This document shows, piece by piece, positions 8,280 to 26,600 of a stretch of 64,000 nt of DNA (position 1 is its first letter; each line of letters opens with the position of its first letter). This DNA comes from Naegleria gruberi (Eukaryota): the NCBI GenBank assembly GCA_000004985.1, contig GG738859.1; one strand, given 5' to 3'. The notes beneath the pieces are model-generated. The model was not told the origin of the DNA and ran no database searches. It saw only the letters and a program-made list of their open reading frames with translations. The position numbers and the translations under genes are program-made.

Positions 8280-9680
8280 ATGATGACCACAGATTTTCTG
8301 TGTCCTGAGAATGCTTCCTCCCTCAAACCTCGTCCTCCAACCTCACCGTGTACTTCTTCTTCATCATCGGGAAGAAGACAAGCAAGTGTTCGAAATTTAC
8401 AATTTTCTTCTGTACCCTCTTCTCCCTCATCATCCAAAAGAGCTTCTCCAACCACATCATTAAACAGTTCAAAACCCTTATCATCTTCATCGAATAGTAA
8501 AAGTCCATCACTAACCATAGGAACTGCCACATTATCACCAAGAATAACAACATCATTATCTGCACAACAAGCACCTCCATCACCCTCATCAGCAGCAGCA
8601 AGAAAGATACGTCTCAATATTGATTTGAATCAAATTCAAAAACAAAATGAAACTACCATCGCAATTGGATTAAAAAGATCATCTTCTAAGAGTCATTCAT
8701 TGAACAGCTCCCCAATTAATCATCTCCTCTCACCCAATTCCATCCTTTCAAACAACTTATACTCGAGTAATAGCAATCAATGCACTCCAGCTACAATGAT
8801 AACCGTTACTTCATCCTATCGGAGCACAGTAGAGAAGGATGATTTGATGAAAATTGTACCCTACTCTCCACACATTCCCTCTCCCATAATGAGTAAGGGA
8901 TTGTTTGAGAGTGATGGATGTGAATTCTCTCCACGTGATGCTCACTGGCTGCCCAAACAAAAGAAAACCATCACTAAGGAGAAGAGTTATCAATCGTTGC
9001 CACCCCAGGTTGAGGAGAATGAATTTAATCTGATGAGTCCACGACACATTGTGGAAACTTATTCAACTACAAAGAAAAAGTTTACAGAGATTAAGAATAA
9101 CCCAATATTCGATACTGCACTATTGGAAAATAAGGCTAAAGTTGCTGAATTTAAAAGTGAAAAATTCAAAATTTTGAGAGAATTTTGTGATATGAATTCT
9201 ACATTGGATGTTTGTTATAAGGAATTGGGTTCATTTACAAGTTTGGAAAATCCACAAGATCCACTCAAAGTTGTGGTTGACAAAGCAGCTTTTGAACAAT
9301 CACCAATTCATGAACATGAGGATGCTCTTCATAAACGAAGACAACTCAAAAGAATGATGAAGAATGCCAAAAATCAAAATATTGCCAATGACTATGCAAG
9401 TGACATGGATTTGAAATCTCTCTTACTCATTTGTGAGTTGAGAGAGAAGGAAAAGAAGGAATTTCCGACACCAAGGAAATCACTTCTTAAAAGTCCAAGA
9501 ACTCCCAGAACTCCAGGAAGAAATGCCAAGTTGCCACCTCTCAAATTTTCAGAACAATACAGATTAAGCAAAATAAGACAATCTATGGAAGTAAGTGGCA
9601 CTGATTCCTCTTCTCCAATAAGTAATGGCTCTGTACAACAATCAACTGTGATGCTATCACCTTCATCTCCTAATAATTAA
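8280..9680 (+). CDS. Ser/Pro-rich hypothetical protein (466 aa) with clustered proline-directed (S/T-P) sites
   Basis: Uninterrupted ORF, Ser-rich N-terminal half, multiple SPxK/TPR motifs (SPRTPRTPGR) near the C-terminus. The antisense ORFs 8276..8617 and 8323..8601 are alternate-frame artefacts. Confidence 0.4.
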   Translation: MMTTDFLCPENASSLKPRPPTSPCTSSSSSGRRQASVRNLQFSSVPSSPSSSKRASPTTSLNSSKPLSSSSNSKSPSLTIGTATLSPRITTSLSAQQAPPSPSSAAARKIRLNIDLNQIQKQNETTIAIGLKRSSSKSHSLNSSPINHLLSPNSILSNNLYSSNSNQCTPATMITVTSSYRSTVEKDDLMKIVPYSPHIPSPIMSKGLFESDGCEFSPRDAHWLPKQKKTITKEKSYQSLPPQVEENEFNLMSPRHIVETYSTTKKKFTEIKNNPIFDTALLENKAKVAEFKSEKFKILREFCDMNSTLDVCYKELGSFTSLENPQDPLKVVVDKAAFEQSPIHEHEDALHKRRQLKRMMKNAKNQNIANDYASDMDLKSLLLICELREKEKKEFPTPRKSLLKSPRTPRTPGRNAKLPPLKFSEQYRLSKIRQSMEVSGTDSSSPISNGSVQQSTVMLSPSSPNN

Positions 9681-9707: not shown

Positions 9708-11748
9708 TTATTGACCAATGGATTGCCAAATACCTTCTAATTTATCTTGGTATTCTTCATAATCATTTGCATTTCCTAATTGTTGTAATAATTCGGTAAT
9801 ATCATTATTGCATAGGAATGAGTCATTGCTGTTTGTTTGCTCTATTGCATTAAATTCTTGATATGGCTGCATGGTTGTTTGATTTGAGGTTGGTATCGAA
9901 TAACTGCTATTGGTAGAAGAAGCTTCTCTATCACCATTCATGATGGAAGAATTCAAATTTACCAGAAAATCATTCAAATCTCTCCTTTTTCTCATCAATT
10001 GAGTCATTTCGCTCAAAGTATTTTTCAACACTACGAATTTGGAACTAATAATCACAAGTGAATTGAAATTTTCAATAATCATACTAGAATCATTCACTCT
10101 CAGATTGACCTTAATAAGAATTGGAAAGAAAATTATAATGACAGGAGCAGATTTCCAAAAAGTTGCCCTCGATGCCAATCCACTGGCCATTGTAGCGCAA
10201 TGTAAACCCATCTTTTCCAAGCCACACCTCACCAAAATGTCAGCCCTCAAAGAATAGAGACAGAATCGGTGGACATTCTTTTGAATATCATGTTTCTGGA
10301 ACTTGTCAGATTCAATATACTTTTCCAGAGTTTCCAATTTTCTCAATATCCCAATCAACTCTGTCTGATTATTTGATAAGTATGCAACTCTAGAATACAG
10401 CAAGTAATAAACCAAAGTGGCGGTGAAGGAAATTTCTTCACTTCCCTTAATGAGTGACATTTCACTAATTTTCCTTTCTAATTGTTCAATCTTTCGAGTA
10501 CATTTGGATGATGTGAGATAATTACTTGTCTCCTCCACTATTTTCTGCATATTTTCATCTATTTTCTCAATTTCTTCCAACTTGTTTACTCCCAATTCTG
10601 CCAAAAATTTTGAAATGGAATTTGCAAATGAAAGTGCTGAAAGAGCTTGATAAAATTTGTCATCCTCAACCTGATATGAACATATGCTCGATGACATTTC
10701 CAATGCAATCCTGTTATACATATGACTCTTTACTCTTTCACCTTCTGAACAAGCATACACTCCCATCAAACTCAAAGCACACGAAGCTTCTCTAGAAGGA
10801 TGATCGAATAGATAACTTGCCTGAGATCTAGCTCTATTGAAAAAGTCGACACAATTCTTTCGATCCTCCAATCGTTGAGCTCCCATTGCACAGACGATGT
10901 TGAGCAATAAATGGAAGCCATAAGGATCTGGTGAGTGATTAATTGGGCTCATGAGAGATGAATTGAGGCATTGATCTAACATTGGACCATCTACTAGTGA
11001 GTGGCATGTTACACAACTTGTAATGTTGAGTATGAAATGTCATTATGAATACTTACTCTAAAAATTGATTCATGAGAGTTCTTGTTTGAGTGGTGACATT
11101 AAATTGAAGTCCACTTAATGGACTTGAGTATAAAGAAGTAATGGGGAATGCTTGAGAATGATTCTCATTAAATTGATCGATAGAATTATTTGATTGTTTT
11201 TCATCTACTGCAATTTCATGATTAGTGACATTATCTGAATTTTCTAAATCATCAGATGATGACGATTTTCTCTTCTTTGGGCCTCTTTTCTGAGGTGGTA
11301 GGTAAGCACAACTAATTCCCTTTGATTTACATCTTGTGCATGAATTTGGAGCTTCACCATCGCATTTTTCTATTTTAGGAAAATGCAATAAGAGAAATTG
11401 AATATTTGTAAAGTACTTACTGTGCAGCTTGTTACAATAGACGCATGCAGATTTGTGCTTTCGTTTCTTTTCGGAAGAATTTGAACTGTGTCTAACTGTT
11501 GACAAGGTTTCGGATTCTTGTGGATGGAAAGAGGTTTCGTTTGGTAGTGTTTGGGATTCGTTAACAATTGAAAGGATATTTGATGATGTGGTTGGTGTGA
11601 AATACATGTTGGTTAACTGTTCAAAGAATGGCAAAAGTACTAATTGGAAATTATTCGAAACATTATTGTTGTGCATGACTGGTTGATTAGTTGAAGATGC
11701 TAACTGTCGATTGTTCTGTTGCCACGATGCTTGTTCATTGGATGACAT
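9708..11748 (-). CDS. Zn(II)2Cys6 (Gal4-type) transcription factor with fungal-type middle homology domain; 3 exons (~11748-11421, ~11369-11057, ~11016-9708)
   Basis: Exon 1 ends ...KHKSACVYCNKLH. An intron (GTAAGTAC...AATAG) splits the zinc cluster, which continues KKCDGEAPNSCTRCKSKGISCAY, giving CX2CX6CX7CX2CX6C, followed by basic PQKRGPKKRK. Exon 3 (ORF 9708..10982) resembles the fungal_trans regulatory domain (LLLNIVCAMGAQ...SLMGVYACSEGE...). Confidence 0.7.
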
Positions 11749-12271
11749 TTTTTTCTTTATTAGTTTCTGATTTCGATAATACAACTTTCGTTTGGTTTCT
11801 TATGACCACAAGACAAACAGCTATTCTCCATTTGTAGAATCTTAATTGCCTTACGGAAAACCTTGCTTCAATTTGGCATGAAATTGAAAACTGTATCTCA
11901 ATACAAAACTCCTTTCCAGATTTTAGATTCCAGTTCTGAAATTTAATAGAATCTCAAAGAGAAAATCCTTTCCCAAACGATGACAATCTTCACTGTCTTA
12001 TTGTCTTCATTCCTTCATTCTTAGTACTTTATTCAAATATCGAATATCGTACCATCACTTGCAAAAAAACCAATCACGAAAATACATGAATGAACTTGCT
12101 CAAATTGTACTTGAGGTTACATCCCTCACCCATCGCCCTCGTCTATTTTGATTTTATATTCGATGATTAACAGCTCTTTTGTGAACAAGCAACAACTCGG
12201 TAAAAATATTCAATATTAAGAAAAAACAACAACTAGTTACCCACCCTACCTTCTTTTTGTATTATATAGAG

Positions 12272-12949
12272 ATGAATCCATATCAACAACCATACGGTTA
12301 TCCACCACAAGGAGGTATGCCACCACAAGGATATGTAAGTTTTATATTACTATATGAATTTGATAGAGTTTTTGTGATTTTTGTGATGTTTTTGTGATCC
12401 ATGGTGATCTTTTGTAAAATTGAAAAAACGTTTAAATTTATTATTTGCTGATGATCATCATATATTTATTGTACAATACAACATACATATTTATAATTAT
12501 ATTTGAAATAACGACAATTTTCATATGAAAATATTTAAATTTGTGGACAACAAATATTTTCGGATTTTGATGACACTTGATAATCACACAAATATTTAAA
12601 TATCATATTGATGATGATTTAGCCAATGCAACCAGGTATGCCAATGCAACCTGGCTATCCAATGCAACCAGGAATGCCAATGCAACCAGGTTATCCTATG
12701 CAACCAGGTATGCCTATGCAACCAATGCCAATGCAACCTGGAATGCCAATGCAACCAATGGGCCAACCTGGATATTATGCTCCACCAACTGGTTATGTTC
12801 AACCACCAGTGAGTTATAATACCACAACTAACTATGCTTATCCACCTACTCATGGTCACGGATATTATCATCATGGAAAGAAGATGAAGTTCGGTAAGAG
12901 AATGAAGTTTGGTAAGAAATTTGGTAAATTCGGAAAGAAGTGGTTCTAA
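12272..12949 (+). CDS. small Pro/Gln/Met-rich repeat protein (~129 aa) with basic Lys/Phe-rich C-terminus; 2 exons (~12272-12334, ~12623-12949)
   Basis: Exon 1 MNPYQQPYGYPPQGGMPPQGY, GTAAGT donor; exon 2 has about ten tandem PMQPG(M/Y) units (15-nt DNA repeat). Ends ...GYYHHGKKMKFGKRMKFGKKFGKFGKKWF. Confidence 0.45.
12623..12790 (+). repeat. coding tandem repeat, ~15-nt unit (CCAATGCAACCAGGW) x ~10
   Basis: Direct reading of aatgcaaccaggtatgccaatgcaacctggctatccaatgcaaccagga... The periodicity generates overlapping ORFs in all frames (12577..12819, 12596..12874). Confidence 0.7.
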
Positions 12950-13296: not shown

Positions 13297-13830
13297 ATGG
13301 AGGCAATGCAAATTGTTGGATTGGTAGACTCTCTCGAATTATTGGAAGCCATCAAATCAGTTCGGAATCAAGTCTTTGTTCAGGAACAAGAAATTGACTC
13401 TACTCTAGAATTTGATGCCAATGATATTCAATTTAAAGAAGGATTGGAAAATTCATCAACAACCTCTCTTTTAAACAAACTCCGCTATTATTATATTAAA
13501 TTCAATGGTGATGATGGAGAGGTGTGTGGTACATGCCGAGCAAGAAAAACCACTGATTCAACTTGGAAAATTGAAAGAGTGGCCACTTTGAAAAATCATA
13601 GAGGAAAGGGATTGGGACAGAGTTTGATTTCGTTTGTTATTGATGATTTGTCCAAGTTGGATGATTCCAGTAATAGTGAGGAAACAACTTTTTACATTCA
13701 TGCTCAATTGTCTGCTTATCCATTCTGGAGTCGAGGCAATTTCAATAATGGAAAATTTATTAAAGTTGGAGAAGATTTTGAGGAAGCTAGTATTCCACAT
13801 TGTAAAATGATCTACCATCCAAATAAGTAA
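13297..13830 (+). CDS. GNAT-family N-acetyltransferase (177 aa)
   Basis: Single ORF with GNAT motif A, ...KIERVATLKNHRGKGLGQSLISFVIDDL... (R/Q-x-x-G-x-G/A), and a typical ~170-aa size. Confidence 0.65.
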   Translation: MEAMQIVGLVDSLELLEAIKSVRNQVFVQEQEIDSTLEFDANDIQFKEGLENSSTTSLLNKLRYYYIKFNGDDGEVCGTCRARKTTDSTWKIERVATLKNHRGKGLGQSLISFVIDDLSKLDDSSNSEETTFYIHAQLSAYPFWSRGNFNNGKFIKVGEDFEEASIPHCKMIYHPNK

Positions 13831-14408: not shown

Positions 14409-16931
14409 ATGGTTTATGTTAACGAGGAAATTGAACAAGCTAAAGAAAAGGTTTTGAATGAATTGGGTTATGCTCCAATGGCCATTGTTCTTGGAAGTGG
14501 TCTTGGTGATTTTCCAAAAGTACTTTTAAATGCTAAAAAGTTATCCTACTCTCAAATTCCACACATGCCACAAACATCAGTTCAAGGTCACTCTGGAGAA
14601 TTGATTCTTGGTGAATTGCCAACCAATGATAATCAAAAGAGACTTATTTACTGTTTTGCTGGAAGAATTCACTCATATGAAGGAGGTCCTTGGGATGAAG
14701 TTACCTTCCAAGTTAAATTGATGGCTTCAATTGGTTGTAAACTTTTTATCATGACAAATGCAAGTGGTGGTCTTTTTGATGAAATGAGTGGAGGTTGTTT
14801 GTGTTTATTGACAGGTCATTTCCGTTTATTAGCAAGAATGGATCCAAACAGTCTTGCACCTGGGGCTAGAGTTTCAAATGGTCAATTATTAGAAACTAGT
14901 TTTGAAAAGAATGAACAAATTTCACAAATTGAAGACAAGTACTCACACTTTGCTCCAGATTATTGGACTTCCAAGTATGTTAATTTGTGTAGAAGTGTTG
15001 CCAAGGAGCAAGGTATTAAATTATTCGAAGGTTCTTATGCTTGGGCTAGTGGTCCTTCATTTGAAACTCCACTCGAAGTTTTGATGGCTAAACAATTGGG
15101 AGGTGCTTGTGTTGGTATGTCAACTGTTCCTGAAATGCTCACATGTAATTATTATGGAATGGAATGTATGGGTATTAGTATGGTTTGTAATTTGGGAGCT
15201 GGTTTGCAAACTGAACCACTCACTCACAAGGAAGTTTTAGAAAATTCCAAGATTGGTACTGAACATATGCAATTGTTGGTTAAGGAAACTCTTTCCAAGA
15301 TTGATTTTGATGAAGCCACTCCACAAACTACCACCACCACTGAATATCTTCCACTCAGAAAGAATGAATCCACTCACAAACTCACAGCTGAATCTATTGC
15401 AAAGGCTGCTGAAATTATTAGAGTAACTTTGGGAGAAATTGACTCGGTTCAAATGAATGTCTATTGTACTCTTCCAGATGCTCCAAATGTTAGTGAACTC
15501 GAAAATAAGGTCGACTTGATGACTCTTCCACAATTCCCATACAGTACTGCCTCTGGTAATTTTGGTTACTTTACCAAGAATTCCAAGAATCAACTCACCT
15601 TGATTACCAATACTCACTCCAGTTTGGACAATACATTGACCACTGAAGAATCTACTTACATTGCTTTGGTTCTCAACTTACTCAACATTCCAAACGTTGC
15701 CTACTTTGTCAAGTGTTCTGATTCAAAGGTTGTTCCAGGTGTCACCCAACAAGAAATTACCAACGTTACCAACTTTGGTTACTATGAACCATTAGAATAC
15801 GTTGAAACAGTTTACAGAACTTCTGAACGTTTCGTTGATACTACCAGCAAAGATACCAAGAAGAATTCCTACATGGCCTTTATGGGTCCTGATTTACCTT
15901 GTGCTATGGAATGTCACACTGCTGAAGAATTGGGTCATGCTGTTTATGGTGTTACCTCTCTTGCTTTGCATAATTCTTTGAAGTATTTGGGTTTCAATGT
16001 CAAGACTTTTGTTGAATTTGTTGGTGCTCCAGAAAAGAATGCTGTTCAAATTGAAAATGTTGCTACTAGAACTGTCAAGCAAGTTGATATTGAACAAAAC
16101 CACAAGCTTCACTATCAAATGCTCAAGATTAGTGAAATTGAAGAAGCCACTCAGTTTGTAAAGGAACAATTGGAACTCACTGATAAGAATATTGAATCTG
16201 TTATTCTCGATTTGAACTTGAATTTGCCATTCACTCAACATGAAAATATCAAGATTATCAAGTCTGTTCCATTCAAGAATATTCCACATCTCCAAACTGA
16301 ATTTGGTCAAACTCTCTCATTGGCCACTATTGGTGATAAGCACATTTTGGTTGTTCACCATATTGATCAATCTGATGAAAGCACTTATTTGCGTAGTAAT
16401 TCATTGATTGAATTGTCATTCATTATCAGAGTTTGTCAACATTTGCACACTGTTAATAATATTTATCTCAATAGTGCTGTTGTCAGTGCTCTCAATTCAA
16501 ACTTTGAACCAATTTATACTCCAAACACATTAGTTCAATACCGTGATCACATTAACTTTACCGGATACAATCCATTGATTGGTAAGAATGAAAACAGATG
16601 GGGTGATAGATTCTTTGATGTTTCAGGATTGTACAGACCACTCAAGACCTCAACTAAGGTTGAAACTACCAATGTCATGTATGCCAATCACATTCTCCAA
16701 CTTGATAATAAGGAATTACGTTCTACTGTCTCTAAATTCAACGTTAACGTCTTGAGTTCTGTTGGTGGATATGAAGCTCTCGTTGCTCACCACGATGTCA
16801 AGCCAAAGGAAGAAAGAGTCAGATGTGTTTCATTGGGATTGGTTATTAATGAAAATTCTGAAAAGTTAATTTGTCCAGAAAAGAAGAAGGAATTAATCAC
16901 CACTCTCTGTAATGATATTTTAGGATTGTAA
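14409..16931 (+). CDS. multi-domain purine nucleoside phosphorylase (PNP/MTAP family) protein with three tandem PNP-like domains (840 aa, single exon)
   Basis: Domain 1 (aa ~20-290): MAIVLGSGLGDF...HMPQTSVQGHSGELILG...GRIHSYEG...IMTNASGGL...SGPSFETPLEV...GGACVGMSTVPEM (canonical trimeric PNP motifs). Domain 2 (~330-575) is degenerate (PQFPYSTASGNFGYF...HAVYGVTSLALHN). Domain 3 (~590-840) retains RDHINFTGYNPLIGKNENRWGDRFFDVSGLY, matching the PNP [34 protein letters not shown] loop. Each domain is ~270 aa. Confidence 0.75.
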   Translation: MVYVNEEIEQAKEKVLNELGYAPMAIVLGSGLGDFPKVLLNAKKLSYSQIPHMPQTSVQGHSGELILGELPTNDNQKRLIYCFAGRIHSYEGGPWDEVTFQVKLMASIGCKLFIMTNASGGLFDEMSGGCLCLLTGHFRLLARMDPNSLAPGARVSNGQLLETSFEKNEQISQIEDKYSHFAPDYWTSKYVNLCRSVAKEQGIKLFEGSYAWASGPSFETPLEVLMAKQLGGACVGMSTVPEMLTCNYYGMECMGISMVCNLGAGLQTEPLTHKEVLENSKIGTEHMQLLVKETLSKIDFDEATPQTTTTTEYLPLRKNESTHKLTAESIAKAAEIIRVTLGEIDSVQMNVYCTLPDAPNVSELENKVDLMTLPQFPYSTASGNFGYFTKNSKNQLTLITNTHSSLDNTLTTEESTYIALVLNLLNIPNVAYFVKCSDSKVVPGVTQQEITNVTNFGYYEPLEYVETVYRTSERFVDTTSKDTKKNSYMAFMGPDLPCAMECHTAEELGHAVYGVTSLALHNSLKYLGFNVKTFVEFVGAPEKNAVQIENVATRTVKQVDIEQNHKLHYQMLKISEIEEATQFVKEQLELTDKNIESVILDLNLNLPFTQHENIKIIKSVPFKNIPHLQTEFGQTLSLATIGDKHILVVHHIDQSDESTYLRSNSLIELSFIIRVCQHLHTVNNIYLNSAVVSALNSNFEPIYTPNTLVQYRDHINFTGYNPLIGKNENRWGDRFFDVSGLYRPLKTSTKVETTNVMYANHILQLDNKELRSTVSKFNVNVLSSVGGYEALVAHHDVKPKEERVRCVSLGLVINENSEKLICPEKKKELITTLCNDILGL

Positions 16932-17061: not shown

Positions 17062-19288
17062 TTAAAGAGCTTCTCGACGAGTCATGGTCAATAATTGTTG
17101 AGCATAATTCATACAGACCTTTTCACTCTCACTCATCCATTTGCCTTCTCTTCTCTCCTTCAATTTGGTCTGAATAATTTGAGCCCATTGTTGATCACAT
17201 TGAGCAAAGTGTTGCAACATTTTATCAATCACTCTTTGTTCAGTCACTCTAAAGAAGCTGGCAGCAATATTATCACACAAATTATTCTTATCCTTCTCTG
17301 GGAGAATCTTCCAGAAATCAGCAACTTGAGAATACAAATCCTCGAAAGAACCTTCATTTGGAACTTCATACAGACCACAATTTCCAGTAACCTTAAATGG
17401 TGGATCAATGTATTTGGCATTTGGTTTCAAACCTCCAAAGGCACTTCCAGTATAGTGAGGGAAGGAATCATTGATTGGAATGTACATGTTACCACCCAGG
17501 TAATTATTCATTGGTTCAATGCCATGTGGACGATTGACATAGAGTTGCTTAAAGTTTGGACCAATACGATGAATTTGAGTATAATCATAAATTAATAATC
17601 TTCCTTGCAATAGCTATTAACGAAAAACATGTATAAATATTTCAAACTCATGAACAAGTAAACTTACCTTATCAGGACTCAATCCAATTCCAGGAACAAC
17701 AGTAGCAGGAGAGAAGGCCACTTGTTCAACCTCTGTGAAATAATCCACAACATTTCTATTCACCTCCAACGTACCAACCTCAATCAATGGATAATCTGCA
17801 TGTTTCCAAACCTTTGTAGCATCAAATGTCCATGGATGTTTGTAACCTTCCTCCTCTGGCATGACCTGAATCATCATCTTCCAACGAGGGAAATTCTGTT
17901 TCTCAATTGACTGATACAAATCACGAGAAAGGAAATTTGGATCCTCACCTGCTACTAATTTTGCTTCATGTTGATTGAAACCGAAAGCTCCTTGTTGAGA
18001 AACTAAATGGAATTTGACCCAGAAACGTTCTTTGGCAGAGTTGACCAATGAGAAAGTGTGGCAACCATAAGCATTCATGGTTCTGTAGGAAAGAGGAGTT
18101 CCAGTTCGATCTGTGAAGAGCATGGCCATTTGATGGAGTCCTTCTGGGTGGTTGGCAACATAGTCCCAGGTTTGGGTAATGTTCCAGCAACCAGTTCTTG
18201 GATCACGTTTGAAAGCATGGACTTGGTCTGTGTGGTTGAGGAAGAATGTAGAGTTTAGTTGTTGGAAAGGTTTAGTTTGAAAAATTGTTAGTGGAAAGTG
18301 AAATAAACAACTTACCTGGACCTGCTTTGGCATCTCTGACAGCAAAGACAGGAGTGTTGATGCCCAATAAATCCCAGTTACCTTCCTTAGTATAGAATTT
18401 GATAGCGAATCCTCTTGGCTTGGAAATTGAAAAAATGATATTCGAAAGTCAATATTAAACTTAAAAACTTACATCTCTTGTAGTTTCTGGATCTCCAACT
18501 TCAGTAAAGATACCAGAAAATCTAGTAATAAATTGAGTTGACTTTCCAACTTGATTAAACAAATCAGCACAAGTATACTTGGAAATGTCATTTGTCACAG
18601 TAAATGTACCATAAGCACCAGTTCCCAAAGCATGTACATTTCTTGGAGGAATCTTTTCAGTATTGAAATGTTGAAGCTTTTCTAACAAATCCAAATCTTG
18701 AACACAAAGTGGACCTTGACTGCCAGATGTTAAAGAATCCTTGACATGACCAATTGGACAACCTGTTTGTCTTGTAATGATATTTTGTCTGTTAATTTCA
18801 TTTTGTTCAATCACACCTGGAATTTTACCAAATTGCTTACTGACTTCCTTGGAAGTGAATGAGTCTGAACCATATCCAAGCGGACATTTTAATTGTTGTG
18901 ATAATTGACTACTTTCAAGTCCTTGTTCTTGTTGAAGCTTTGGTTGAGTGGATTGAATTCCAGATGGTTGTAATCCAGAAGTTTGCTTTCCATATTGTTG
19001 TTGTTGAAGTTGTGGTTGTTGTTGCAGTTGTTGTGGTTGCTGTTGAAGTTGTGGTTGATTGGGTTGTTGTAAGCCAACCTGTTGTTGTTGTACTCCAGTT
19101 GGTGATTGTTGCATTCCAGTTGGAGATTGTTGTGATTGTTGTGATTGTTGTTGAGTGGAAGATAAATGAGAAGGTCTGAAGGCACCACTAGCATACGTTG
19201 GTGAAAAACCTTGTTGTTGCTGAGTGGGTGATTTCTGTTGTAAACCACCCTGTTGTTGTTGAGGTGATTGTGGTTGGTTTGATTGCAT
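17062..19288 (-). CDS. catalase (monofunctional, heme) with ~170-aa Gln-rich N-terminal extension; 4 exons (~19288-18473, ~18418-18315, ~18227-17668, ~17613-17062)
   Basis: ...[33 protein letters not shown]...ETTRD | [34 protein letters not shown] | [13 protein letters not shown]...SPDK | [21 protein letters not shown]..., collinear with catalases. Introns have GTAAGT donors. The N-terminus [15 protein letters not shown]... is encoded by a CAA/CAG-rich region. Confidence 0.85.
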
Positions 19289-19503: not shown

Positions 19504-21924
19504 TTATTCGTCATCGTCTGAATCTTCTTCGCTGTCTTCTTCGCCTTCCTCAATGTCTTGTTCAAAATCATGTTTTCTCTTCTTGTTGGATTTAATACTT
19601 CCTGATTCTTCGTCATCGTCGTCTTCGTCCTTATTCTTTCTCTTCTTTCCTAGAGCATCCCTAATACCTGCTTCTTCATCATCGAGATCTTCATCAGAAT
19701 CATCTTCCATGTCAAGATCAGTTCCTAAGGCATCAATAAGTCCACCCATTTCATCATCCTCATCATCTTGCTCTTCTTCAGAATCAGATCCCATAATTTC
19801 CTCCTCATCAGAATCATCTTTAATTTCTTCTTCTTCATCTTCATCGACGAGGTCAACCATTTCGTCATCCTTTTCGTCTTCTTCGTCTGCTTCTTCATCA
19901 GCCTTGAATTCATCATCGTCTTCATCTGCTTGGAATGCATTGAGTAAACCAGCATCGATATCACCATCCACTTTCATGTTACCTTCTTCTGGAGGTACTT
20001 CCTCTTCATCATCTGATAAATAAACCTTCTTCTTGCTTGGCTTTTCCTGCACTTCAAGCACTTCAACAACATCAATTTTGGATTTCTTTGAACTTTTCTT
20101 GCTTGGCTTTTCTGTTGTTGCTGTTGCTGTTGCTGTTGTTTCAGCAATTGATTCCTCCTTTACATCAAAGCCAAAGTTTTGCTTAAGTTTTGGTAAACTC
20201 AGATAGAAATTGACTTCATTAAATGGATTGAAGTCTGGCTTCTTATTTTCGTCTTCCTTAGCTAAACTGACAAGTTCAGCACCACCTCTTGACATTCTCG
20301 AAATCATCTTTCTTGCAAAAGAACTTTGAGTATCTGGACTTACACCCATCGAATTGAAACACATTAATATCTTTTCTGTTGTCATTTTAGTGTCTTTTTG
20401 TATAGCAGCAACGAGTTCTTTCCTCATATAGAAATTACACATGAGTAAGGCAGATGCAAGAAGGTGACAAGCAATACGAACTTGTACAGTTTTACAAATA
20501 AATTTGTCAACATTCAAATGTCTCAATTCTCTTGGTCTAGTCTTTTCATCAGTAACAGCAAAACGAAGAAGTAAATCTTGAAGACATTTTGAAGATTTTG
20601 GAAGGAAGAGATATGGGTGTTTCTTCATTGCTTCAACTGGAGCATTTGGGAAAATAGCTTCAACACTTTCAATACCAGTATCCTTCTTTTCTTTCTTTTT
20701 TTCTTCCTTTTCTTCCTTTTCCTTCTTTCCAGCTTTCTTAGTTTGTTTACGATCAAGAATTCCATTTACATAACAAGTTCTAATAATATTTTGAGCATGA
20801 TCCTTGAATCTTTTAGCTTGTGAAATTTGGAAAAGACCCAACATGACCATATAATAATGAGCAATAGCTGGAATGTCACCAGCAACAGTTTGTAAGAATG
20901 TTGAGAAATCCTTTTGATTATCCGTTTCCTCTTGATCAGAATCTTGTTCGTCATCACTAGTAATGAACTTTTTCTTTTTCTTTCTCTGTTCTTTAGAGAC
21001 AGCATTCCAATTCCTATTATCAATTATTGAACCAAAATAGGTTTGTAAGAATTGTGGAAGGTGGGTGAAATCTGATGTTGATTTAATATTCACATTAACA
21101 TCTTCACTCAAAGCACCTGTTTCTTCAGTGGCATCTTCAAGAACTGCCCAAACTTTTTGAAGTGACTTGTTTCTATTGTGTTTTTCCTCAAATTGTTCAA
21201 TGAGTTGTTTCTCTGAAAATAATAAATCCCTCTTTAAATCAAGAACTTCATGTAAATGAGTTGTATGAATATTGAAACTTGGCATGTACTGTTGCATAGT
21301 AGACAAGGCAGAAGCTCTTGTTGTTTTTCCGACCAATGTTTGCAATTCTTGTAATTGAGCCTTTCTCAAATCAGTTGCTGAAGTAGTAGCTCTCTTTTCT
21401 TGAATTTTAGTGTATTTCTTAGAGTTGAAAAGTGTGAGACCATCGTTTTTAACAATGGCACCACCAAGTACTCTCTTTTCAAAGAATTGTTTGTATGTGA
21501 TACCTGGTTGGACAGAATCAATTCCTCCTTGTTCAATTTCCCTCTTTAAAGTTTCCTTTCTTTCAATATTTTGTTTAGAGTCCTCGTTAATAACATAAAA
21601 TTCAGGTACATCAATAATTGTTGGCTTGCTTTTACCTTGTTTTACTACAGCCAATAAATATTTAGACCCTTGATTTGTGTTATTTGATGAAAATTGCATT
21701 GTTTTAGATTCTCCGTATAAGAAAGACTTGGATTCTTCATCTCGCACTAATGTAAAGTGTACATTAGAAATATTAGGAGGTGCAGAGATTGAATTTGAAA
21801 ATTGAACAACACATGGTGTTGTCAAGGATGTTTTTTTGCTCTTTTTAGAGGAGCTTCTTGTCTTCTTTTCATCCTCTGAAGATGATGAAGATGACTCCAC
21901 TGGCTTGTTTTTGTGTTTACCCAT
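19504..21924 (-). CDS. nuclear/nucleolar-type protein with long D/E-rich acidic C-terminal tail (806 aa); N-terminal region weakly resembles RNA polymerase I subunit A49/PAF53 dimerisation domain
   Basis: Uninterrupted ORF. N-terminus ...CVVQFSNSI...VHFTLVRDEE...PTIIDVPEFYVINED loosely recalls POLR1E/A49. Lys-rich patches and a ~200-aa Asp/Glu tail follow. The +strand ORF 19421..20023 (poly-Ser) is the antisense of this acidic tail. Confidence 0.45.
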   Translation of the reverse strand: MGKHKNKPVESSSSSSEDEKKTRSSSKKSKKTSLTTPCVVQFSNSISAPPNISNVHFTLVRDEESKSFLYGESKTMQFSSNNTNQGSKYLLAVVKQGKSKPTIIDVPEFYVINEDSKQNIERKETLKREIEQGGIDSVQPGITYKQFFEKRVLGGAIVKNDGLTLFNSKKYTKIQEKRATTSATDLRKAQLQELQTLVGKTTRASALSTMQQYMPSFNIHTTHLHEVLDLKRDLLFSEKQLIEQFEEKHNRNKSLQKVWAVLEDATEETGALSEDVNVNIKSTSDFTHLPQFLQTYFGSIIDNRNWNAVSKEQRKKKKKFITSDDEQDSDQEETDNQKDFSTFLQTVAGDIPAIAHYYMVMLGLFQISQAKRFKDHAQNIIRTCYVNGILDRKQTKKAGKKEKEEKEEKKKEKKDTGIESVEAIFPNAPVEAMKKHPYLFLPKSSKCLQDLLLRFAVTDEKTRPRELRHLNVDKFICKTVQVRIACHLLASALLMCNFYMRKELVAAIQKDTKMTTEKILMCFNSMGVSPDTQSSFARKMISRMSRGGAELVSLAKEDENKKPDFNPFNEVNFYLSLPKLKQNFGFDVKEESIAETTATATATTEKPSKKSSKKSKIDVVEVLEVQEKPSKKKVYLSDDEEEVPPEEGNMKVDGDIDAGLLNAFQADEDDDEFKADEEADEEDEKDDEMVDLVDEDEEEEIKDDSDEEEIMGSDSEEEQDDEDDEMGGLIDALGTDLDMEDDSDEDLDDEEAGIRDALGKKRKNKDEDDDDEESGSIKSNKKRKHDFEQDIEEGEEDSEEDSDDDE

Positions 21925-23670: not shown

Positions 23671-26600
23671 ATGAGATTACCAATTCCTCAAAATGTAATG
23701 CCGAATAATATGGCAAATAATCATCATCATCCTCCTCATCATCATCAAAATAATAATTACCCTAAACATCATTATCATGCCCATTCACGATTTAATGTTA
23801 ATACTCAACAAAAGCATTTACCACTTTTCAGAAGGGATTTTATTATAGTGGCTGAGTTTTGTGAACAGAAGGGTCCGACACCTCTTCTCGTCTTGCCAAA
23901 TGATCGAGCCTTGGAACGTTTCAATGTTCAAAAGTTTGTAACAAGAGTATTGGCTGGTGATCACACAAGGAAACACGACAAGTTGGGAGATAATTGTACT
24001 TGGATTTGTCCAGAGGATACTCAAGTCTACTTGACAGATTCTGCTCAAGGAGCTTTTGCCTATGTATGTTTCAAAATCAATTCATTATTGGAAATTAATT
24101 TTTACTATCTTTCTCTGTTAACTTTACTGTTTATTTATCTTGTTTGATTATCAATCATCTACACAACAACAGGTACATCACATTACACTTCATGATATCA
24201 ATGCAAGAGGATATGTTAGACCAATGGTCATGTGCTATGTGACCAATGATAAGGATAAAATAATGCACCATTTTGAATACTTGCTAAATACCTTTACACA
24301 AGTTTCACAAACACTCAAGTATGGAAACAATTGTAAATTCTTGAGCGATACTCAACATCAATTATATGGAATTCAGAAAATAGAAATGAAATTACATCCC
24401 AACAGTGGAAATGAACTGTCTTCACCAAGTATTAGTTCCTCACAGGAATTATCAAATGAAGAAAAAATTGAAAAACGTTGGAGAGAAATGTCAGAAGGTT
24501 TATTCTCTCCCAACAATGAGAATGCACTTTCAAAGGATACTTTCGAATTGGTAATGAAAGAATTGAAGGATTTGAGACGAAGATTCATGATACACATGAA
24601 CAAGTCCTCATCCATACTGAAACCAAAAAAGAAGACTCAAAAAAACAAAAAGAATTCCAAATCAGGTCCATTACAAAATCATACATATTTATTTGAAGAA
24701 TCGAGGTCAAGATCTGCGAGTAATAGCTCACAATCTACCTATGGAGCTGGGTCCACAGAGGAAGATAATTCCGATCAGGAAGTTTCTTCGCTAGGAGATC
24801 CTAGTAGTGGTGACTACAAAGTAGTTCAAATTGTACATAATAGCAGCAGTGGAAACAAATTGGAGGAAAATGATTTCAATGAAGAATTGGATGAAGAGTC
24901 TACCGAACTCATCCTCAATAAGATTGCTGATGAGGAAACTCTTGATACGGGGTTAATCGATCATATTTACATGTCGTTTAGTGCTGGAACTTCCTCAGTT
25001 TCATCTCTACATTTACATCCAACATTTGCAGTTAATCCTAAGGCAAATCTGAATGCTGTACCATATAAGAGTTCGCATTTTGTTGGAGGGTTTAGTGGTG
25101 CTAGTGTTGGTGCTCCAACAACAGCCTTCTTGTCCTCTCCTCATCAAGGTTCACATATTCAAAACACATCTCATATGGTGAATGTACTGAATGATATTAG
25201 TGATTCTCCATATTTGAACAGCATTTCCAGTCCAACATTCAATGCAATGAATTCTCTCAAGGTTCAAAATCCTGACTTTGTGGAATTGTATGAGACTGGT
25301 CTTTCTGTGTCCTCTCATAATTTGAAACAATTCATGCCAACCATTTTAAGATGTATCCACAGAAATACTAATTTTGAAACCACCCTGAGAACGTTAGCTC
25401 AAATTGCTGGACAGAAATTTTATGAAACATCGGTTGATTTGATGTTGAATATTATCGAACATTTCTATAGAGATTGTGATGTTATTGATATGGAAAATGC
25501 CGACTTGGATATTATCAATTCGAATGACCTTAACTCAATGCTCTTCATTGGAAGAAACTTTTTATTGGACTTTAATATTGAAAATGGTTATCATTACCCA
25601 CCAACGTTAAGCAATACCACATTTACAAAGAGCTTCCAATACCAATCAGCTCTGAATACTAGTGCTAGCATCAACTCTTCCAATGATGAAGTTTCATGGT
25701 TAGACAATGAAAATACATACAATGATGCTGAAGATGAGGCACTATCAACCATCTCTCATGATGAGCAAGACAATCCACTATTTGGAAGCTTCCCTTCCTC
25801 CTCTCCTGTGATGGCAAACAACTCTATCGAACAAAGCAACTCTCTTTCAACCAACAACAGTGACCGCTTTCAACTGTACAGAAATGGATTCAAGGGCACT
25901 GGTTCCTATGTCAATAGTCTATTCCAAGAATATGACAAGTATGATGAATTATTCCACGAATTGAAAAAGAGAAAACATAATTCCTCCAATTATACTGCAT
26001 CAAATAATAACCAAAATCAATCCCTTCTAACCTCTCTCCTGTTTGAATATAATTATGGTGAGCATAGTTACGGAAAAGGAATATTAAGGTTTTTCAGAGA
26101 ATTTTCATTCACAAAAGATATTGCCTACTCCATCATGATTGGTCGACCTATAGTAATATATGCAGATTCTAATCAAGAACAGTAAGTATTAGATCACCAC
26201 TCTTTTCAAAAATTAATTAATACTTTTATCCAATACAGAATTGTAAGAAGTATTGTCAACTCCCTAGCTTTATTCATACCAGGGTTTATCAATGGAACAT
26301 TTGAAAATACAAAGAATGACTACTTTTCTGTTTGTTATTGGAAGACCACTCCAATCAATGTAAGTTTTTTCAGCAACATTCAATATCAACTCTGAAAAGA
26401 TTCTTGATTTTTCCACAAACAAGATTATTGGGCTGAGTAAGAAAGTTCATTTCCCTACAACATTCGAATCTTGGGTGAGCATTTTGGATTTGGAAAATGA
26501 ACTCTATACTGGACCAAGCTATTATGGAAGATATTTGGATATTATCTTTGATGAGTCAAAGGAGTGGTTTACTGAGGATGCATTCTTGGCCTTTACGCAT

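Follow-up and report, generated by a model that had tools for sequence, protein, structure and literature searches.

The analysed window, a stretch of 64,000 nucleotides from the Naegleria gruberi contig GG738859.1, contains an intron-less open reading frame (ORF) that had been read in a first-pass annotation as a single polypeptide with three tandem purine nucleoside phosphorylase (PNP) domains (Table 1). The frame is indeed uninterrupted: it is free of internal stop codons, and its product is residue-for-residue identical to the N. gruberi NEG-M protein XP_002679035.1 / D2VAE0, which carries the annotation "purine phosphorylase family protein"; this identity marks the window as nuclear DNA of N. 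gruberi, and the gene model equals the one in public databases. The three thirds of the protein are referred to here as D1, D2 and D3.

Table 1 Features of the PNP gene and its product (positions in the window)
Feature	Residues (aa)	Position	Strand	Basis
Complete intron-less ORF, 840 aa and stop	1-840	14409..16931	+	ATG-to-TAA, single terminal stop
D1, catalytically competent PNP domain	1-300	14409..15308	+	Catalytic-residue mapping
Degenerate D1 inter-subunit loop and lineage-specific insertion	~133-190	14805..14978	+	Alignment, model pLDDT
Linker 1, low-confidence coil	301-317	15309..15359	+	Predicted model
D2, catalytically dead PNP-fold domain	318-565	15360..16103	+	Profile comparison, fold, residue mapping
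Linker 2	566-584	16104..16160	+	Predicted model
D3, catalytically dead PNP-homologous domain with inter-subunit donor loop	585-840	16161..16928	+	hhalign, D2+D3 profile, residue table
D3 donor loop RDHINFTGYNPLIGKNENRWGDRFFDVSGLY	712-742	16542..16634	+	Alignments, conservation

Immediately upstream of the PNP gene lies an ORF of 177 aa for a GNAT-family acetyltransferase (13297-13830, plus strand; Acetyltransf_1, E 1.4e-8). An 18-nt tandem repeat of 7.7 copies (12622-12760) encodes MQPG(M/Y)P hexapeptides in a 107-aa ORF (12626-12949, plus strand), the product of which ends in a Lys/Phe/Gly-rich C-terminal tail (GKKMKFGKRMKFGKKFGKFGKKWF). On the minus strand, a catalase gene (17062-19288; Pfam Catalase and Catalase-rel) is distributed over three ORF pieces (17062-17610, 17617-18345 and 18461-19288), which implies at least two short introns. 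The catalase has an unusual Gln-rich N-terminal extension of ~170 aa with short tandem repeats at 18995-19151. Long acidic and Ser/Lys-rich tracts characterize the product of an 806-aa ORF (19504-21924, minus strand) that is devoid of a Pfam match. Pfam matches were likewise not obtained for the ORFs at 8280-9680, 9708-10982, 11053-11784 and 24140-26185.

Homology of the three domains

In a single-sequence scan against Pfam, the PNP_UDP_1 profile (PF01048) matched aa 24-295 only, with 122.7 bits at a cut-off of 25.1. When each third was scanned separately against Pfam, no match was obtained for D2 or D3; a sub-threshold DIX match (E 0.025) was dismissed as noise. For a comparison at the profile level, 16 full-length homologues were aligned, the alignment was split into three domain blocks and the blocks were compared with hhalign. 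D1 and D2 were related with a probability of 98.9 % (E 2e-17, 205 columns), D1 and D3 with 97.6 % (E 3e-12, 183 columns) and D2 and D3 with 93.3 % (E 3e-7). Identities between the domains in these alignments were 12-16 %.

A profile made from D2 and D3 only, searched against the PDB sequences, matched solely PNP and MTAP chains (best E 3e-40). The D3 part of this profile (positions 341-499) aligned to PNP residues 73-233 with an i-E of 4e-32, and the N-terminal part of D2 to PNP residues 5-93 with an i-E of 2.5e-6. In phmmer searches, PNP chains from the PDB aligned to aa 6-132 and aa 195-289 of the N. gruberi protein and separately to aa 702-743 (i-E 3e-6). The PNP segment DHINxxGxNPLxGxNxxxxGxRFxDMS aligned to this last region and not to D1. 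The alpha/beta nucleoside-phosphorylase fold is supported for D1 and D2; the assignment of D3 to this fold is one made from the sequence profile.

The profile comparisons, the PDB search and the fold match of D2 together identify all three thirds as PNP homologues, so that the proposal of three PNP-sized domains in one chain stands. Profile matches confined to the first ~290 aa had been named in the first-pass annotation as grounds for abandoning it. Such confinement was seen in the Pfam single-sequence scan and disappeared with the family profiles; as the latter detect D2 and D3 where the Pfam scan does not, the criterion was too strict. Pfam-based annotation thus picks up just one of the three domains.

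Distribution across protists

A search of 1.84 billion cluster representatives with the D2+D3 profile recovered about 45-50 proteins, 750-1170 aa long, that possess an N-terminal D1 followed by D2 and D3; ordinary PNPs of ~275 aa first appeared at E ~1e-36 downwards, matching the D3 part. The named sources of the three-domain proteins are Naegleria gruberi, N. fowleri, N. lovaniensis, Willaertia magna, Acrasis kona, Andalucia godoyi (with a shortened D2), Blepharisma stoltei, Anaeramoeba ignava, Lapot gusevi, Dermamoeba algensis, Diphylleia rotans, Pygsuia biforma, Gefionella okellyi and MMETSP transcripts. We take Naegleria, Willaertia and Acrasis to represent the Heterolobosea, A. godoyi the jakobids, B. 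stoltei the ciliates, L. gusevi the Rhizaria, D. algensis the Amoebozoa, D. rotans the CRuMs, P. biforma the breviates and G. okellyi the malawimonads. The search of related genomes for the same fusion, suggested earlier, was successful in other Heterolobosea as well as in many other protists.

This distribution also bears on the concern, raised at the outset, that three adjacent genes or an assembly error had been joined into one ORF. Such an artefact would account for the unusual length of the frame, which is its sole support. A run of 840 stop-free codons in one frame has a chance probability of the order of 1e-28 (~1.6e-28, computed from the base composition of the window, 34 % GC), and the NEG-M genome annotation holds the identical protein. 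Full-length orthologues are present in N. fowleri, N. lovaniensis, Willaertia, Acrasis and Blepharisma. Many of the three-domain homologues are transcript assemblies of 'ORF type: complete', which indicates, at the level of transcripts, a single translated chain for the three domains. Moreover, D1, D2 and D3 are highly divergent paralogues rather than recent copies. With the same architecture of 770-1170 aa in genomes and complete transcripts of many protists, we regard the artefact as excluded for all practical purposes.

The identical D1/D2/D3 pattern in all of these lineages argues for one ancient triplication. The presence of a three-domain PNP in most eukaryotic supergroups sampled bears on the nature of the purine-salvage enzyme in early eukaryotes. 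N. fowleri is a lethal pathogen and trimeric PNP a classic drug target; the N. fowleri homologue has the same architecture and 64 % identity, and its inter-subunit loop is unlike that of human PNP.

Catalytic residues and inter-subunit elements

The list of catalytic residues of human PNP was taken from PMC9916683 and mapped onto each domain. D1 contains S30, H61, R86, H88, Y90, N117 and G120 as counterparts of human S33, H64, R84, H86, Y88, N115 and G118, and Y210, F218, E219, G236, M237, S238, N261 and H273 as counterparts of Y192, F200, E201, G218, M219, S220, N243 and H257. The phosphate and ribose motifs previously ascribed to D1 were all four located between aa 29 and 242 (GSGLG, aa 29-33; VQGHSGELILG, 58-68; MTNASGGL, 115-122; VGMSTVPE, 235-242). 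Among 47 three-domain homologues, the D1 equivalents of E201, G218, M219, S220 and N243 are invariant, and those of R84 and H86 occur in all 43 proteins that are not truncated there. Position 200 is F or Y, and the equivalents of S33, H64, Y88, N115, G118, Y192 and H257 are kept as well.

None of the 15 catalytic positions is kept in D2 or D3 of the 47 homologues, and the positions of N243, M219-S220 and R84-H86 are variable in these domains. The homology of each domain to PNP would by itself be compatible with three active domains, giving an enzyme with three sites on one chain, comparable to the fused dUTPase of Drosophila virilis. The residue table contradicts this reading, as no phosphate-, ribose- or base-binding residue is left in D2 or D3 of any of these proteins, and we consider it highly improbable.

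The inter-subunit loop is distributed differently. D1 is without the canonical loop and has GHFRLLARMDPN in its place, in which DHIN is changed to GHFR and an equivalent of Phe159 is missing; none of the 16 homologues found first and aligned in this region has this residue in its D1 loop. A low-confidence insertion follows, with pLDDT values below 50 for aa 151-182 in the AlphaFold2 model. This insertion (~aa 133-190 of the N. gruberi protein) occupies the former place of the inter-subunit loop; N. fowleri and N. lovaniensis have longer versions of it, and Willaertia has none.

D3, in contrast to D1, contains a loop of near-canonical PNP sequence, DHINxTGxNPLxGxNxxxWGxRFPDMS. G725, G732 and F735, the last corresponding to human Phe159, are found in all 47 three-domain homologues, and N727, R734 and D737 in 45 of them. 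The first-pass annotation had correctly placed this loop in D3, but the end of its motif reads NRWGDRF instead of ERFGDRF.

The description of D2 as strongly degenerate was borne out, yet profile-profile comparison and fold mark it as a PNP homologue. It has neither a catalytic residue nor a Phe loop, and its C-terminal helix is reduced. The position of Phe159 is a gap in 15 of the 16 first-found homologues, with an F aligned in the remaining one (P0017). Conserved residues foreign to PNP are present, namely E at human position 95 and P at 201, the latter replacing the catalytic Glu in 42 of the 47 D2 domains. D2 retains a GPxxPxxxE 'acceptor' strand with P497 and E501 (human E205), and the E501 equivalent is invariant in the 16-sequence alignment.

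In calf PNP, loop 141-168 of each subunit forms the interface by packing against residues 87-91 and 196-205 of the adjacent one, and Phe159 is the sole active-site residue given by the neighbouring subunit (PMC9916683). E205, the counterpart of E501 in D2, bonds to the neighbour's loop in the calf enzyme. Conservation, expressed as the frequency of the commonest residue, was calculated for the donor and acceptor segments of each domain in the 47 proteins (Table 2).

Table 2 Conservation of donor loops and acceptor segments in 47 three-domain proteins (rest of the domain in brackets)
Domain	Whole-domain mean	Donor loop	Acceptor
D1	0.50	0.34 (0.52)	0.71 (0.48)
D2	0.28	0.20 (0.29)	0.44 (0.26)
D3	0.30	0.59 (0.26)	0.24 (0.31)

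Conservation was strong for the D3 donor and the D1 acceptor, intermediate for the D1 donor and the D2 acceptor, and decayed for the D2 donor and the D3 acceptor, both of which fell below their domain means. At a threshold of at least 85 %, D3 has 14 conserved positions, 12 of them inside the donor loop (human numbering 134-166); D2 has four, three of which, including the E205 equivalent, belong to the acceptor strand 196-205. This gradient is what a ring with the order D3->D1->D2->D3 would be expected to show were selection confined to the D1 site.

Proposed arrangement and comparison with known PNPs

The full-length AlphaFold2 model reached a pTM of 0.83. This value and the conservation of donor and acceptor segments suggest that the domains most likely close into a ring resembling the PNP trimer. 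We consider it probable that the protein is a single-chain PNP of three paralogous PNP-fold domains, likely ringed like the homotrimer and presumably monomeric, in which one active site is left. D1 would give the phosphate, ribose and base pocket. D3, its own pocket destroyed, would provide the Phe159 loop (aa 712-742) in trans, with F735 complementing, capping and stabilizing the pocket of D1. D2, devoid of pocket and loop, would accept the vestigial D1 loop on its conserved acceptor strand and, as the third, structural member, complete the ring and keep D3 in position. D1 would catalyse the phosphorolysis of nucleosides, probably of the 6-oxopurine class because equivalents of Asn243 and Glu201 are present, at one site per ~95-kDa chain.

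Such a division of labour among the copies, with the pocket on D1, the trans-acting Phe loop on D3 and a degenerate D2, had been anticipated from the N. gruberi sequence, and its residue pattern is conserved in the 47 homologues. The accompanying interpretation, a fusion of the PNP homotrimer into one chain followed by subfunctionalisation, is supported. In the Andalucia godoyi protein P0043 (702 aa), D1 and the D3 loop are kept, D2 is much shorter and only its GPxxPSxAE half is recognisable, which suggests that, of the three ring members, D2 may be the one most easily reduced or dispensed with.

D1 could also be an ordinary PNP catalytic domain to which D2 and D3 are attached as PNP-derived pseudoenzyme domains with a different function, for instance in allosteric ligand sensing, in binding a partner or in localisation; there would be no PNP-like ring, and the D3 loop would be conserved for that function. 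The retention in all lineages of two domains stripped of every catalytic residue would fit this reading, as would the conserved non-PNP residues of D2 and the human variant F159A, which is reported to be still trimeric and nearly normal in activity (PMC9916683). However, conservation in D2 and D3 falls precisely on the donor and acceptor elements of PNP, which keep a near-canonical sequence, and the pTM of the model argues for a fixed, compact arrangement. A PNP subunit simulated on its own by molecular dynamics does not keep its active-site geometry, including that of F200/E201 and the H64 loop (PMC9916683). D1, whose own loop cannot serve, should for this reason need the loop of a neighbour. 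We therefore judge a role outside a ring to be rather unlikely. For the single-site ring, the nearly full activity of human F159A implies that the D3 loop may owe its selective value more to interface stability than to catalysis. In D2 and D3, the inactive pockets might moreover have become allosteric sites.

The gene has already been annotated in GenBank, and the three-domain PNP architecture is, as far as checked, new to the literature. A literature search with thin coverage of subscription journals turned up no account of a multi-domain PNP, whether called triple-domain or pseudo-trimeric, from Naegleria, from ciliates or from any other organism. The known trimeric (low-molecular-mass, NP-I) PNPs, represented by the human/calf structures 1ULA and 1PF7 and the bacterial PunA-type structures 4UC0, 8SWT and 8SWU, consist of three identical chains of ~280-290 aa with three equivalent sites. 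The Naegleria protein, in contrast, is one 840-aa chain of three diverged domains with one intact pocket; pocket and trans-acting loop reside on separate domains, and the catalytic domain has a decayed loop of its own. D1 is a bona fide member of the trimeric-class family (EC 2.4.2.1), whereas the whole protein has neither three identical subunits nor three sites. It resembles fused pseudo-trimers in that a single polypeptide carries three homologous domains corresponding to the subunits of a normally homotrimeric enzyme, but these domains are diverged rather than near-identical, and only one of the three pockets is intact.

Triple fusions are found among dUTPases, in Caenorhabditis elegans as well as in Drosophila virilis. 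The D. virilis enzyme is a fused pseudo-heterotrimeric dUTPase (Benedek et al. 2016, cited in PMC12524310). It resembles the Naegleria protein in that a normally homotrimeric enzyme of nucleotide metabolism with inter-subunit sites now consists of three tandem domains joined by linkers. Its fold is unrelated (an all-beta jelly roll), and its three domains are described as nearly identical and as forming a catalytically active unit. The Naegleria-type PNP, by contrast, has lost two of its three sites and goes back to a probably ancient, widespread fusion, whereas the D. virilis dUTPase is lineage-restricted.

Whether the Naegleria-type protein represents an undescribed and very old PNP class, possibly dating back to the last eukaryotic common ancestor, in which a fused homotrimer has one composite site (D1 pocket and D3 Phe loop) and D2 is a purely structural keystone, is in our view evenly balanced. 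The reasons why PNP must be a trimer, and the existence of 'third-the-sites' reactivity, are still argued, as contrasting references cited in PMC9916683 indicate. If the proposed arrangement is true, pocket donor, loop donor and scaffold are split within one polypeptide and each can be mutated alone, which is impossible in a homotrimer. The protein would be a natural, hard-wired 'one-third-of-the-sites' PNP and would illustrate clearly how, after a fusion, redundant sites decay asymmetrically. A natural single-site pseudo-trimer would surprise PNP enzymologists and offer a direct handle on trimerisation and site-site communication.

Other PNP fusions were encountered among the metagenome proteins P0012-P0037, P0041 and P0052. 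Many of them, ~660 aa long, contain a metalloenzyme domain (PF01676, phosphopentomutase-like) next to the PNP. In one protein PNP is combined with concentrative nucleoside-transporter domains, and in another, of 998 aa, the PNP domain is embedded in a PAS/GAF/histidine-kinase architecture. All these fusions likewise carry PNP_UDP_1 in a longer chain, but join one PNP to unrelated domains, have no PNP-derived D2 or D3, and presumably are still homo-oligomers.
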